Assembly: GCA_042217555.1 (NCBI GenBank)
Contig: JBDGSL010000088.1
Span: forward strand, 1-14,513
Direction: 5' to 3'
Source of the DNA: Candidatus Nanohalobium sp.
GTDB taxonomy: Archaea; Nanohalarchaeota; Nanosalinia; Nanosalinales; Nanosalinaceae
Length of the DNA: 14,513 nt
A program made the position numbers. Shown here piece by piece: positions 9,001 to 14,513 of this stretch (position 1 is the first letter of the stretch; every line of letters starts with the position of its first letter).

Positions 9001-12000
9001 AGCAGAATACACTGATTATACTGATTTAATCACTGAAATTATAGAAGATGGAATTAAAAATGAATCAGAGGATACTGTCACTGCAATATATCATAGATCC
9101 TCTTACAAGGAGTTAACAAAACTATTTTCTGGATTTCAGGAGTTCTTTATTTACTCAAACCCGAGTAAGGAAGAAAGTGTAATAGAACTGAGAGATTCAA
9201 TTAAATCAGTGGTAGAAGGCCTTTACAAGCCAAACCTCAAGTTCATCAGAATGCTTTTGGAACCTGCCTCTGGAAAGGGACGGATTGGAGGAAATCAGAC
9301 GGTAGGAGGATTGATGTCTGAATTAGAGGATGATTCTCATGACTTCTCTGAGATCTTACTATGGAAGGCCTTAGAGGTTAAGAACTCTACAAGCCATCCA
9401 GATACTGATTTCCATGAGGAGAGAATAGAATTTCTAAATCCAGAAGACCTTACTGGAAAAGGAGTAGATAAAAATCAGCCTTATCTAACAAAGGAAGACT
9501 TAAAGGAAATACGAGGCGAGGTTATCCAGGTTTCTACAAGCCTTATGATAAGTCATAAGGAAATTTACTCAAGTAAACTATACGATGAGGAAAATTGGTA
9601 TTCCCAAGAAGAAATTGGTTTTCTATTAGCAACTTTGAACAATATGGACTTAGACATGTTTCAGGAAGAGCAAGAATAATCCCCAGAATTGTAACAATAA
9701 TTGCCAAGCCCCGAGAGAGCTAGATATTAGCCGTACAAACTCTCTGCTTGTCGTGTCTTGCCATACTCCTTCCTTCTGTTGGCTTTTCAAGTGAACATTG
9801 CCGTCAAGTTTTTAAATAACTACAGCACCTCACACACCACAACTCAAATGAAATGAAAGGTCCGACTCGACGGAAACGAAAGAGGGCTGGAAACACTAGC
9901 CGAGAGCTTCACCGACGACCCCGAAGTATTCAAGGATGACGACAACTTCTTTCTCCGGAGCTCTCAATTCGAGGACCTCGAAGACGCCGATGAAGTACGA
10001 GATACCGCAGAGGAGATCGTCCGAACCATCCGAAACCTAGGAGCCAAAGACTCGCTAAGAACCGAGGACCTGCAGGCCTCTCACGTACACGAAATCAACG
10101 AGGACGGTACTGAGCACGTCACTGTTCGTGCAGAGAGCTCTACGGTCAAGATGAGAGCAGGTCCTGTCCGGGTGACCACAACAGATGAGGATGGGAACAA
10201 GAGTGTTCACAGGCCTGCTGATCGAACCTACGAATTGACTCAGCTGGCTGCTGAAGACGATAAGGTACGAGAATTGGTGGCCTTGATCGATAAAGGAGAC
10301 GACTGGGTGAACCTCTACCGACTCTACGAATTCATCCAGGCAAACATCGACGGAGACGAGAACATCGTTGACAGAGGCTGGTGGTCCAGCAACGAAAAAG
10401 ACCGGTTCAAACAGACCGCTAACAGCCGGGACGCAATCGGCGACAATGCCCGTCACGGCCAAGAAAGAATACCCGCACCAGACAACCCAATGACTTACTC
10501 AGACGCGAAGGCCTTAGTTGACTCACTCATCCGGGACTGGCTAAAACACAGAAGGGAGCTATAACTTCGCCGACCAAGCAAATAAATATCGAGACATCTG
10601 TGTCCAAGTATGTCTATTCAAGGCACACTCAACATTTTGCTCCCATCGCTAATATCATCTGTATCGATTATCTTTGTTGCAGTTACGTTCTTTATTGGAC
10701 AATATGAAGAAAATAAGTATGATATCCCCGCTGAGCGATACGCAAAGTCAATCCGACTTATGAACTTAGCGTTAGCACCAGCAATATTATCACTGTGCTC
10801 TATCGGGATACACTCGCTTGGGATTGGTAATCATTGGACTATCCTGTTTGCCTGGGTTTTATTAGCAATGGAAGCTGTCGTTCTTGTGCTAAGTGTCATC
10901 TGGGTAAGCCACAGCACCCTAGATGGCGGCCTAATTTGATCAATCCATGTTTGGAGATCAACCAGAAAAAATTCCAGACGCAGAGGCAGCAGAGCAGATA
11001 TTTGGTGATAGAGAAAAAGGAAAACTAGAGGAGGTGTATAAATCTGAAACCGGCCCGGATGGAGAGCCACTAGCTCACAAAGCAGCTAAAGACTTCTGCG
11101 ACCAAAATGGAGAGAACGAATACGAGATCCCCTCAGGCAGCTCCCCCGGAGAAACTGCTGGCGTGATAGGGTACATGATCTCCCAGCGAACTGACCTGAT
11201 GCCTAATGTGCTGGACGAGTCTATTAAAGATGGTCAGAAGAAACTAGCGTATATCTATTTTGGAAAGTGTGCTATGGAAAACGGCGACCACTAATTCAGC
11301 CTCTAGCCTCCAGTCGATCCTGCACAAGGAACAGATACCGTTTTTGATTAGTTGAGACGATCTGATCTTGGGTCTCTTTGTCACCACCAAATACGTTATT
11401 ATCTGTCCGTCGAATTCGCTCCTCTCTCTCCTCCAAAATCCCCCGAATTTCTGAATAAGAAATCCGTTCCGGAAGACCCTTTGATACATCTTCCAAATAA
11501 GATTCGGATAGATCTACGTCGCTAAAATAGCTATCTAACAGATCATCAGCTATTTGCGCCTCAATTCCATAGTCCTCAGCCAGCTCTCTTAGATGGTATA
11601 AGCTGACAGCATCCCCTGCCGATATTGTATCCGATGATGAGTACTGCTCTAGAATAATATCTCGTACAGCCTCTAGCTCGCCCTCTTTCTGACCAATCTC
11701 CAGCAGTTGATCCACTTCATCGTACTGAAGCTTCTTTCCCTGCTCAACTATCGACTTTTTCTCCTCCAAGTACCCCTGAATGTTTCCCATATGTTCACCT
11801 ATACTAGTTGATTTTTTTATTGATGATTGGTCAGACGTTAGCGCCCTACCCCCAGCTTCCTCAATTTGCTGCACAGCAGGATCAGTGAACTCATCAGCAA
11901 TAACAACCAACTCCTGTCTAACCCGGCCATTACCCAACACTTTCACGCCAGCAGAATCTGGAGACTCCTCAACGACGTCACGTGCATCTATCCGATATCC

Positions 12001-14513
12001 AAATTCTGTTTGTTCAGCAACACCCTCCTCAACCCATAAAGCTACATTCTCATCTAATTCTCGAACTGTGATCTCATCAAACTCAACCGGGTTCGGTTGA
12101 GTAAATCCGTCTTTACCTAAAGGCTCGTAATTCTGCTGTTCATGTTTGTCTCTCCCGGCTCGTCCTCTACCTCCTCGATGGCCTGCACCCCGCCTGTTCT
12201 TATGACTACCGCCACCGTGAGTACGGGAGCCGCGCTGTCGACGTTTCTTGGTTGTCATATGAGTTTTTAGGGTTTCTTCTGGGAACTTGAATATTGGTGG
12301 TCCATGGACATCTGTCTTCTGTCTAACCAGACTGCGTTTAAGCCAGTGGTGTACCTACCGCTATTTCCGTCTTGGTCAAACGGTGGCCAGCCATGGAGTA
12401 ACGTTCCCATTGTCCTCATGTGTTGCTTGGTTTAGTGGTTGGAAAAAGGTTTTCCCAACCTGTACATCTGAGTTGCTTAATATTCCGATGTCTCGAAGAG
12501 TCAGAACAGCCTATTCGGGAAGGTTTTCGATCTCGTTGAAGTCCCGAACTGGTCGAAATACTACGTTATCTGTCTGTAGGCCTTTCTCCTCCATCCTTTG
12601 CTGCAATCCCTGGAGGATTTCCTGGTTGCGGGCTGCGACCCAGACGATGAAGTCTTTCTCCAGATGCTTCTCGATGTGCTCTATTTCTCTTGGGTTGTCG
12701 CCCATCGCTACCTCGACCACAAGCTCGGCAGTGTCCATATTCACGTAGACGTCGGCATCGAATACCTCTGTCTCAGCGTACCAGCCTGCTTGTTCGAATG
12801 CTTCCTTGATTCGAGTTTGCCAGTACCTGTGAACGACTCCGCCTCGCCCCCTGTGTTTCGCTTCCAGATCTAGCTCCTCTTCGACGTACTGGCGGCCTTT
12901 CTTCGTCAATTCCAGCAACTTTCGACGTCCACTCTTTGTACGGACCTGCCTCTCGATCAGTACTCCTTCGTCAACGAGCTCGTCCTTGGCCTTGTTTCCC
13001 TTGTACCGGCTAGGAAATTCCCCGTATCGTTCAGTCAAGGGCCTAAACGGATTCTCGACCACGTCCTTCAGTAGGCGGTCTGCTTCGCTTGAAACGTTGA
13101 CTTCTCTTGAAGGATCTTCCGGAGTATCAGGCTCAGGTACCTCACCAGAACGACCTTCCAATATCTCAACTTCGAACTCAGGCGTCGTATCTCTTGGTTC
13201 GTGAGACATGTTGTTCCAGTTCTCGGCCTGGAGTTTCTGAAGTTCGCTATCAGAGATCTGCTTGTCTGCTTCGTGGTTATCGAGTTTGACCGGTACCGGG
13301 TCATGGTTTCCTGTTTGGACTACCGCCTCTCCTACCTCAAGCTCAGAGGCAAACTCCATCTGTCTCTCAGACAGGTTCATTGAGTCTGTGATTGCTTGGA
13401 ACTGCTTCCGGTCGCCTGTAGGCAGCAAAACTTTGGTGTACGTGTTCGCCTTGATAGAATCCGTCAACTTGCTTGCCTCCTGATCACCAACCACCAGGCC
13501 CTCACCGAACTTCCGCATCTTCGCCGTCAACTGATCAATCTCCGGAATACCAGCCGCATCCTGACGCTCCTTGTACACTGAGAAAACCTGCTTCCCTTCA
13601 TCCAAGAGAAACAAGTGCCGTAACTCGTCACCACGCATTCCCTGAGACAAACGGTACTCGTAGACACCAGCAAACAAAATCTCCATCAAAAAGTTCTGAA
13701 CATCCCTGCTGAGACCGTCAAACTCGAAAACCACCCTCCTATCTAGCAGCTCCTCTATCGTAGGACCCTGACTGCATTCGAAGACTGTACCTGCTGTAAG
13801 GTTCATCGCCTCCAACCGATTCAACAAACGATCCCTGTAATCCGCAGCAGTACGAACATAGCTCATCGAATCATTCTCAACCAGTACTTGTAGTTCGTGA
13901 AGGCCTGGATACGGCCCAGAAACCTCCTCAAACAAACCGTACAAGTCGTAGAGCTCAATGATCTTCTTCAACAAGTAATTCTTGGACCCCGAAAGTAGCG
14001 AAGTAGCGTGACCGAAAATTTCGGAGAAAACCTGAGCCCACCTACGAGGAGACACACCACTCGGAGGCCTCAACGGATTCAACTTCAACTCCGACCACGG
14101 CAACACCAGCAAATCATCTTCACGAGCCAAAGGCCTGTAATCCCGCTTCAAATCAAAAACCCAGCACGGAACACCAACCTGATCAAGCAGATTGAAAAAC
14201 AGAGTCGTCTTCCCCGAGCCCGACTGACCTACAGCCAACAAATGCCTCGTTAGATCGCTCTCAGAAAACCGGAAGCACCGGCCATCGAAGGTGTCTCCCA
14301 GCGTAATCCCTCCCGTGAAGGATCTCGATGCAAAAGGATACTCTGAGTTCTCAACTGCTCTCGCTGCAACTACTCGGGAAGCAACTTCCTGCAATACCTC
14401 ACTTCGAGACAGGCCAGAAGCCAGAACCAGCTTCCGTACCTCCTCTTCATCAAGAACGTCATATACTGACGGACATGGGTTTTGATAAGCTTCGACTCCA
14501 AGTGGGGATATGA

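Follow-up and report, generated by a model that had tools for sequence, protein, structure and literature searches.

A Chimeric Ribosomal Protein uL15 in a Mobile Three-Gene Cassette of Halophilic Archaea

Results

A uL15 Fusion Gene Faces Two Small Genes

An extra gene for ribosomal protein uL15, fused to a helical domain that we call X, is part of a conserved unit of three genes, in which the fusion gene faces two small genes, Y and Z, on the opposite strand. We studied this cassette, which measures about 1.7 kb, in a contig of Candidatus Nanohalobium sp. (C87; the window, meaning the whole 14,513-nucleotide stretch of DNA analyzed). The features of the window are listed in Table 1. An earlier note on this DNA had described the fusion as preceding the two small genes and had counted the neighboring ATPase gene in the conserved order; in fact, the small genes are not downstream but converge on the fusion and belong to the unit, and the ATPase gene lies outside it.

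Table 1. Features of the uL15-X cassette and its surroundings in the window
Feature	Position	Strand	Remarks
HerA/TrwB-like P-loop ATPase	12511..14511	-	5′ end off contig; carrier element, not cassette
uL15-X fusion gene (long form), 320 aa	11296..12258	-	ORF; dN/dS 0.118 versus L110
uL15 N-terminal basic extension, aa 1-52	12103..12258	-	most strongly conserved region of family; net charge +11
uL15 globular domain, aa 53-141	11836..12102	-	fold match; dN/dS 0.16
TATA-like A-rich word, putative short-form promoter	11812..11820	-	30-22 bases before internal ATG
Linker, aa 142-156	11791..11835	-	low model confidence; holds putative internal promoter
X, eight-helix acidic domain, 164 aa	11296..11790	-	opens at Met157; putative short product; dN/dS 0.11
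Y, acidic protein, 115 aa	10947..11294	+	convergent; C-terminal G-x5-NG motif; stop one base from fusion's stop; dN/dS 0.11
Z, 109 aa, three hydrophobic segments	10610..10939	+	upstream of Y, same direction; dN/dS 0.15

The fusion is a real gene, as the note had held, and neither a fragment nor an annotation slip. Long two-domain proteins (303-413 aa) made up 33 of 78 matches, and three more were found among the 150 representatives listed; the 36 long members come from several sources, which rules out a frameshift or an assembly artifact. Purifying selection acts on all three genes and on each half of the fusion (dN/dS 0.11-0.16).

The first half of the fusion is a full uL15 domain of the haloarchaeal type, again in line with the note. 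The protein scores 43.3 bits against the Pfam model Ribosomal_L27A (cut-off 21.5), its residues 1-144 match Haloarcula marismortui L15 with an E value of 1.4e-49, its globular domain matches the fold of 9nri_BL (Z 13.7, rmsd 2.8, 89 aligned), and 52 of the 55 positions that are invariant in housekeeping uL15 are also present in it. Across 32 fused members the basic extension is 69-94% identical to housekeeping uL15, whereas the globular domain is degenerate in some ten members (31-41%). Between the window and L110, the extension shows a pS of 0.84, with synonymous sites saturated, while pN is 0.15; given this saturation, a role in DNA recombination cannot by itself explain why the 5′ end is conserved.

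That the basic extension alone is kept in all members would suit a view in which X, Y, and Z form a toxin-antitoxin or exclusion module independent of ribosomes and the uL15 half is a borrowed basic RNA-binding tag, acting, for example, on the module's own overlapping 3′ ends. In six of seven loci the stop codons of X and Y are adjacent or overlapping; X in G466, accompanied by Y and probably Z, has no uL15 match beside it (an assembly gap lies upstream); and other uL15 fusions bear unrelated tails (P0054, P0087, and P0084). We nevertheless consider this view unlikely: the globular domain shows purifying selection in the window's clade, it appears to have been replaced whole by a host version in P0020, and what the extension preserves is the very sequence of housekeeping uL15, not charge alone.

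The genome also has its own uL15 gene, on contig C12, flanked by ORFs that we take to be uL30-like and secY-like. The note's separate and distant operon copy is thereby borne out: it is 32% identical to the fusion over 147 aa by tblastn and 36% by HMMER. A housekeeping uL15 gene accompanies the fusion in all five fusion-holding genomes, including G223, G754, G557, and G025. Housekeeping uL15 is encoded once, in the spc operon, with uL30 and secY on either side; the fusion, a second copy located elsewhere, does not fit this description.

Y faces X in seven of the eight loci whose flanks were read, mostly in integrated elements, defense islands, or bare islets. A profile of Y matches the same genomes as a profile of X (2 of 401 Halobacteria and 2 of 70 genomes of the phylum), and it finds the copy in G025, which was absent from its alignment, with an E value of 2e-8. 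Position, size, and hydropathy were the sole grounds for pairing Z proteins across distant loci, their identity being 12-24%. The comparison of the Y and X profiles (7.6%, E 0.005) is too weak for the two to be called paralogs.

The ATPase Gene Belongs to the Carrier Element

The ATPase gene is part of the element that carries the cassette and is a mere neighbor of it. What is left of it in L110 is a 55-aa remnant, its homologs in G223 (65%) and G754 (57%) lie about 26 kb and about 7 kb from the fusion, and there is none in the G557 islet; the proposal that it is a conserved partner of the fusion does not survive these comparisons. The cassette itself is intact in L110, where the carrier element has decayed to scraps, and in G557, where the element is absent.

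In four cases the cassette is surrounded by defense genes on mobile DNA. Its neighbors in the window are two GmrSD genes, DUF4268/PDC-S11, and Mrr; the G466 neighborhood includes McrBC and that of G025 ParE; and in G223 it lies with PIN, DUF4209/PDC-S39, and an integrase in an element of about 50 kb between tRNA-Thr and a 44-base partial repeat. The islets in L110 and G557 are bare of such genes. The contig had been described as low in GC, which is true of the whole (41% versus 45.8% for the genome) but not of the part that holds the fusion (about 9.7-14.5 kb; 45-52%), the low GC being limited to 1-9.7 kb.

X Is a Helical Domain with No Catalytic Signature of the HEPN Type

Modeled alone, X is all helical (pLDDT 89), in agreement with the earlier description of the C-terminal half. 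Its conserved positions are hydrophobic residues or glycine and tyrosine, and no arginine, histidine, lysine, aspartate, or glutamate is conserved in more than 30 of 39 rows. The catalytic motif of HEPN proteins is R-x4-H; arginine and histidine are absent among the positions of X conserved in at least 60% of the 39 rows, and a HEPN-type catalytic signature is therefore lacking.

No match stood out in fold searches with the X-only model. A VIA search returned generic helical repeats (best Z 7.2, for 4uer_a, rmsd 2.8, 99 aligned) and none of 48,161 chains at Z of 8 or more, a basis on which the fold is to be called neither new nor different. Foldseek searches of the PDB and BFVD with the same model gave no match at E 0.001, the ESM Atlas no usable match, and the X and Y profiles nothing under E 0.1 among PDB sequences. 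With PADLOC 2.0 the only match of the fusion was PD-T7-3 (E 0.0035, 14.6 bits), and Y and Z had none. None of the models of PADLOC, Pfam, PHROG, and NCBIfam gave X, Y, or Z a useful score, so that a label of defense comes from the neighbors, and genes of all kinds accumulate in islands.

An Internal Start at the Domain Border

The earlier account of the C-terminal half included no internal start. We found an in-frame start codon at the opening of X, preceded by a TATA-like word at a distance of about 30 bases, an arrangement from which a short, uL15-free form is probably made besides the long one. The TATA-like word stands at the same place in L110, L016, L102, and L115. In each of the five genes checked, which have 6-15 in-frame ATG or GTG codons, exactly one codon has such a word upstream, and it is the start of X; none of the five long-form starts has one. 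Under a rule that was drawn after the alignment had been viewed and was then widened once, the internal-start pattern occurs in 14 of 25 non-redundant proteins (11 do not fit) versus 2.1% of background windows, and methionine occupies the start position at the domain border in 13 of 25 versus 6.7%. Strong though it is by position, this signal is tied to the protein sequence: once the protein and the codon usage of the gene are allowed for, TATA-like words are not rare (P 0.25-1.0). The word of the window departs from the TTWT consensus of PMC4983044.

The linker in which the word lies is modeled with a pLDDT below 50 at residues 146-157 and has a dN/dS of about 1.1 (pS 0.31), on 10 synonymous sites only. 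It looks like the space between two genes, promoter and start included, as it would if a stray uL15 gene had lost its stop codon before a free-standing X and the former promoter of X could still be seen there; the uL15 half would then be idle and kept similar by gene conversion. Stand-alone X does exist (P0184/P0217 and a gene in G052). Such passive read-through is very unlikely, in our judgment, since the frame is kept across all 36 long members despite linkers of very unequal length, and since conversion alone would not give a uL15 half that combines saturated synonymous with low non-synonymous change.

The uL15 Half Has More than One Origin

The note had spoken of a distinct, horizontally moving uL15 paralog family. 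The copies are extra and mobile, but they are not one lineage: a tree with a single clade of uL15 halves was rejected (p-AU 0.0019, in a test of 16 of the 32 fused rows, picked after the first tree), and such a clade appeared in 0% of 200 bootstrap trees, counted against other named groups. Fused members nest with housekeeping uL15 genes of Halorubrum and Halapricum in a tree whose rows included housekeeping uL15 from a scan of genome contigs with the whole alignment (80 kept of at least 145).

In at least two members the uL15 half seems to have been taken afresh from host genes, judging from sequence identities, in what could be ordinary gene conversion. The globular domain of P0020 is 92% identical to uL15 of Halorubrum trapanicum versus 59% to P0018, its sister by X, and residues 1-90 of P0008 are 83-93% identical to Halapricum uL15, after which the protein resembles its sister P0009 again. 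Pair tests did not reject the grouping of P0020 with P0018 (p 0.17) or of P0008 with P0009 (p 0.41), and overall the distances in one half correlate with those in the other (Mantel 0.46); the refreshing is therefore occasional.

Distribution

The fusion is present in 2 of 70 genomes of the phylum, the number that the note had given for the C-terminal domain; the X profile finds the domain itself in four: G000, G025, where the copy is broken (its N-terminus is lost and Y is interrupted), G052, and G039. The G039 match, 64 residues inside a 1034-aa ORF, was set aside as probably due to chance. The G052 match is a stand-alone X, confirmed by hhalign (92.7%); with only 2 of 70 genomes, its ORF was rejected as a core nanohaloarchaeal gene. 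When stand-alone X was sought with a profile, two proteins came back, both fusion fragments by their Pfam labels; P0184 was missed, so this search is insensitive. A metagenome scan gave at least two loci with the same DNA. Among plasmids we found only an operon copy of uL15 and a Paenibacillus match, and nothing for Y. The family was not found in IMG/VR by a pattern-limited search, nor in INPHARED; it was found in integrase-bearing elements. Cultured haloarchaea are among the holders (named records P0017 and P0069). Neither fusion nor cassette is described in the literature searched, whose coverage stopped short of subscription journals and supplements.

The family belongs mainly to elements of Halobacteria, and the nanohaloarchaeal copies look like spill-over. 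A quite different reading casts the host-type uL15 fusion as an effector of the symbiont, directed at the ribosomes of its haloarchaeal host. The window copy is intact and of host type (58% versus 40% in the globular domain), and DNA related to the rest of the genes on C87 occurs in 12 of the 69 other genomes of the phylum. We regard this as most improbable, given how few genomes of the phylum hold the fusion, the broken copy in G025, the 70%-GC haloarchaeal-type chromosome in which the closest relative (L110) sits, a protein with no visible signal peptide, and a contig that lacks core genes and shares no overlap with any other.

Stand-alone X in G052 sits between L24e-like and IF2-like genes, and housekeeping haloarchaeal uL15 tolerates long acidic C-terminal tails (P0022 and P0052). 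Both facts would accord with a tether from ribosome to membrane, in which uL15-X would enter the 50S subunit and dock via Y on Z, parking ribosomes under stress or serving the export of element proteins, with short X tuning the docking; a ribosome-binding half, an adaptor devoid of catalytic residues, and a three-segment membrane protein are what it calls for. It has only a small chance of being right, in our view: the cassette is rare (3 of 257, 0 of 232, and 1 of 152 genomes of the families), patchy, fast-evolving, and island-borne, like conflict genes, and the long-form promoter looks weak.

Discussion

We tentatively prefer, at somewhat less than an even chance, to see the cassette as a three-gene antiviral (abortive) or addiction module in which the uL15 half is an anchor on the ribosome or a bait and the short form restrains a membrane effector. 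Its steps follow in order of falling trust. Two products with X would exist: a short leaderless form, transcribed from the internal promoter, and a long form that carries uL15. The long form would bind 23S rRNA in the uL15 site through its kept basic extension, with X outside, or would stay free, as bait for a viral factor directed against uL15 or the 50S subunit. X would lack a catalytic site and act by binding Y. Short X would silence Y and the membrane protein Z, much as McrB-S and the Tn5 inhibitor hold back their long forms. Finally, an infection that damages ribosomes or stops host transcription would shift the balance of forms, and Z would stop the cell at the membrane.

In a related version, which by analogy we hold possible although rather doubtful, the fusion would be an integrated decoy: uL15 would serve as a bait or as a sentinel within the ribosome, matched to its current host by recapture from the host gene, checked by the nested short form, and followed by a membrane effector, and would have been recruited in like manner at least once more, onto a KAP NTPase. 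Were it true, haloviruses would attack uL15 or its 50S site; we know of no viral factor aimed at uL15.

A mobile module of three genes that joins uL15 to a new domain, renews it from host genes, and probably makes a second form free of uL15 would give mobile elements a novel means of sensing or gripping ribosomes. The long extension of uL15 is buried in 23S rRNA, and uL15 is a standard phylogenetic marker. Transferred chimeric copies of it occur in halophile genomes and MAGs, one of haloarchaeal type lying inside a nanohaloarchaeal bin, and its use as a marker calls for caution.

The fusion is alike to uL15 of Halobacteria (H. marismortui, 1S72 chain L) in sequence, fold, and invariant positions and differs from it in being an extra copy outside the spc operon, on mobile DNA, and joined to X. 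The integrated decoy domains of plant NLR proteins are copies of a host target fused to a conflict protein and retaken more than once; the KAP family includes anti-phage members, and P0084, in which uL15 is joined to a KAP-family NTPase, has the build of an NLR decoy, whereas X is not an NTPase. Ribosomal proteins encoded by viruses are likewise host ribosomal proteins on mobile DNA; those described in PMC6375957, the main text of which has no "L15", are easily exchangeable ones, and mobile DNA is reported to carry mostly surface-exchangeable ribosomal proteins. The uL15-X family differs from them in being fused and in not having been found in the viral collections searched.

The putative pair of forms recalls McrB-L/McrB-S and the Tn5 transposase and its inhibitor, in which an internal start likewise yields a form that has dropped the N-terminal nucleic-acid-binding part. 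McrB-S is described as interfering with McrB-L by binding McrC (PMC3874153), and the Tn5 inhibitor as having its own, stronger promoter and as dimerizing with the transposase (PMC4265352). They are unrelated to the cassette in sequence, the part dropped here would be a ribosomal protein, and the short product, like any inhibition by it, is putative here. In Halobacterium salinarum, internal RNAs are reported to give short protein isoforms, also in transferred genes (PMC6161675); in the uL15-X family, by comparison, the internal start is conserved across proteins 18-30% identical, and it marks the border between two domains.

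A uL15 Domain Fused to an Acidic Helical Domain

The 320-residue open reading frame on contig C87 encodes a full uL15 domain, as the earlier note had claimed: residues 1–144 match H. marismortui L15 (E = 1.4e-49), the protein exceeds the Pfam cut-off for uL15 (Ribosomal_L27A), and it is 32%–36% identical to the genome's own uL15, encoded on C12. The C-terminal half, X, was rightly called all-helical; folded alone from Met157, it is predicted to form eight helices (pLDDT 89, pTM 0.85; pLDDT 77 for the whole fusion). Because X is strongly acidic and an alignment of its homologues revealed no conserved catalytic-type residue, we read it as a putative adaptor. 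The two-domain build does recur: long two-domain proteins make up 33 of 78 matches in the 176–560-aa range, and the 150 best-ranked of 462 representatives include three more.

Features of the window and of related loci
Feature	Location	Strand	Description
Defence island	window 378-7731		two GmrSD genes (PADLOC HEC-05, HEC-06/Orf5), DUF4268 (PDC-S11), Mrr-type nuclease; left part of window
Non-coding stretch	window 9745-9819		50–75 bases at GC boundary
Interrupted gene	window 9848-10564	+	~238 codons, GC3 0.59, stop at third codon; only 3' part listed, as 137-aa ORF
uL15-X fusion	window 11296-12258	-	320 aa
ATPase	window 12511-14511	-	HerA/TrwB-like
Copy of non-coding stretch	L016:6182-6232		near cassette in G025
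Upstream region	L110:2355-2522		upstream of uL15 start, window's clade
Stand-alone X homologue	L017:7857-8243		128 aa, last two thirds of X, in G052, a complete nanohaloarchaeal genome
ORF upstream of X	L104:9825-10616		263 aa, no known family, in G466, across a gap of Ns

A Three-Gene Unit

We compared eight loci with their flanks (the window; L110, a metagenome locus; and genomes G025, G223, G754, G557, G466, and G052). At all but G052, which has a shortened X by itself, X has a small acidic gene, Y, as its convergent neighbour; their stops are separated by one or 11 bases or else overlap by 4 or 33 bases. At the same seven loci the small hydrophobic gene Z, interrupted by a gap in G466, is upstream of Y. 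The two small genes that the fusion was said to precede thus run toward it from the opposite strand. Copies of Y share a G-x5-NG motif at the C-terminus. Five of six Z copies have three hydrophobic segments, identity among distant copies being only 12%–24%. That the cassette tethers ribosomes to the membrane is unlikely in our estimation.

The proposed gene order headed by an ATPase did not hold: this gene is a 55-aa scrap in L110, its homologue lies 26 kb from the cassette in G223 and 7 kb in G754, and none is present in the G557 islet. By this comparison the conserved unit is uL15-X, Y, and Z, to the exclusion of the ATPase.

A profile of X matched 2 of 401 genomes in a class sample of Halobacteria and 4 of 70 in the phylum of the window, where two had been counted previously; for three families the counts were 3 of 257, 0 of 232, and 1 of 152, the samples overlapping. 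At least one metagenome locus (L110, the same DNA as L109) was among the matches listed. The Y profile, built on an alignment that included G223, G466, and the window's genome G000 but not G025, matched the same two class genomes, G000, and G025.

Variants were also seen. Fusions of G557 (L113/L117), P0074, and P0075 lack the first X helices and the internal start, with Y and Z still paired. The stand-alone homologue in G052 has neither Y nor Z beside it; its flanking genes are L24e-like and IF2-like. The 263-aa ORF of G466 may be an alternative N-terminal module replacing uL15.

Mobile Setting and Hosts

The low GC content ascribed to the fusion's surroundings applies to the contig (41%, against 45.8% for the genome) but not to the fusion's own stretch (45%–52%). 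In G223 the cassette sits inside a low-GC element of ~50 kb that has tRNA-Thr(GGT) at one side and a 44-base partial repeat at the other; the element also carries genes for an integrase, RadC, DUF932, a coupling-type ATPase, PIN, and DUF4209. The L110 copy, within 70%-GC DNA, comes after the same tRNA, the integrase and ATPase being reduced to scraps, and the G557 copy forms a bare islet (51%–63% GC in 70% DNA). McrBC adjoins it in G466, and one GmrSD gene of the window is 73% identical in DNA to a gene in G047. A housekeeping uL15 lies elsewhere in each of G223, G754, G557, and G025; in G466 only the housekeeping uL15 was matched. Judged from these settings, the cassette is evidently mobile cargo of Halobacteria.

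It also enters nanohaloarchaeal chromosomes, since the decayed copy in G025 shares its contig with a GluRS 56%–72% identical to that of G000. A role as a symbiont effector could be imagined for such a cassette, and we give it hardly any credence. The other genes of C87 have DNA relatives in 12 of 69 other genomes of the phylum, one of these genomes being complete and from the same genus (73% over 1.75 kb), so the assignment of C87 to the nanohaloarchaeal bin is plausible, not proven.

The non-coding stretch recurs in G025 and in G026 (L131) at 81%–82% identity and is possibly an element end or a small RNA. The interrupted gene beside it has no family match. L063 (CAZENJ010000083.1), labelled Thermotogae, is probably a mis-binned contig, its uL15 grouping with those of Halobacteria (99).

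Origin and Constraint of the uL15 Half

In a tree of 128 rows (32 fused, 93 housekeeping, and 3 other fusions, with P0004, P0071, P0074, and P0075 left out), every fused uL15 half was placed on the side of Halobacteria (97/87). P0020 belongs to a Halorubrum group (98/85) and P0008 groups with Halapricum (95/95). Constraining 16 of the 32 fused rows, chosen once a first tree had been seen, to a single clade led to rejection (p-AU 0.0019); hence the uL15 half is haloarchaeal in type and mobile, as the earlier note had it, but not one distinct paralog family. Scanned in windows of 30 residues, P0020 is everywhere 83%–97% identical to H. trapanicum uL15, versus 53%–66% to its X-sister along most of the domain, and P0008 is host-like up to residue 90 and sister-like thereafter. 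The uL15 half thus appears to be retaken from hosts, only occasionally, since tests holding P0020 or P0008 with its X-sister gave no significant rejection (p 0.17 and 0.41) and the two halves co-vary overall (Mantel 0.46). We infer selection for a match to host uL15; the same tracts would also come from plain gene conversion.

Crossover between cassettes takes place at the uL15 5' end: the first 96 coding bases of the L110 and P0071 clades are 86% identical although X is only 18% identical between the window's clade and the distant P0071 clade, and the region upstream of the L110 start is homologous to that of P0071.

For the single pair of window and L110, dN/dS was 0.16 in the uL15 globular domain, 0.11 in X, 0.11 in Y, and 0.15 in Z, and in the basic extension of uL15 pS was saturated (0.84) against a pN of 0.15. 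Selection thus preserves the uL15 half as a protein; mere passive read-through is very improbable. Of the 55 positions that never vary in housekeeping uL15, the window protein keeps 52, and among the 32 fused members likeness to housekeeping uL15 is 69%–94% in the basic extension and 31%–92% in the globular domain. That the module works free of the ribosome, with the basic tail as an RNA tag, we consider rather unlikely.

Other uL15 fusions were found. In P0084 (702 aa), a KAP-family P-loop NTPase ends in a uL15 domain of haloarchaeal type (PF07693 and PF00828; QatA/PifA-like by PADLOC), a second, independent recruitment onto a likely defence protein, decoy-like in build. P0054 and P0087 carry unrelated C-terminal tails of ~100 aa, hydrophobic at the end in one of the two, and in the 128-row tree the uL15 halves of both cluster loosely with the mobile copies.

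A Putative Nested Start of X

Methionine opens X in 13 of 25 non-redundant proteins (background 6.7%), and [ILFY][KN] precedes the X start by nine to eleven codons in 14 of 25 (Val allowed, wider window; background 2.1%), a post hoc rule that the remaining 11 do not fit. In five genes examined as DNA, exactly one of the 6–15 in-frame ATG/GTG codons has a TATA-like word 35–22 bases upstream, the spacing commonly expected of such a word, and it is always the X start; none of the five long-form starts has one. All three Val starts among these genes are GTG (chance ~0.28 × 0.32 × 0.24). The word depends partly on the residues encoded. Because those residues vary but the AT-rich word is kept, at a constant distance, in a linker with dN/dS near 1, we favour a DNA signal, a putative promoter of short X. 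According to one study, 72% of transcripts are leaderless, native GUG starts occur, and the consensus is TTWT (PMC4983044); two of the five words, and no more, are literal matches to it. Internal-start isoforms are made in haloarchaea (PMC6161675).

A Possible Conflict Module and Its Likenesses

X, Y, and Z gave no useful-score match to Pfam, NCBIfam, PHROG, or PADLOC models, and the literature searched yielded no description of the uL15-X fusion or the cassette; "L15" is absent from the main text, the portion covered, of a paper on viral ribosomal proteins (PMC6375957). By composition we rate the cassette as outside known kinds, its function being putative. The membrane partner, the defence neighbours, and the survival of the cassette after element decay lead us to suggest, tentatively and at somewhat less than even confidence, a conflict module in which uL15 would serve as anchor or bait, with short X in a restraining role.

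The pairing of uL15-X with short X would recall, in build, the long and short forms of McrB (McrB-L/S; PMC3874153) and, likewise, the Tn5 inhibitor (PMC4265352). In PMC13581612, the host proteins S15 and EF-Tu are named as recruited cofactors and not as fused baits.
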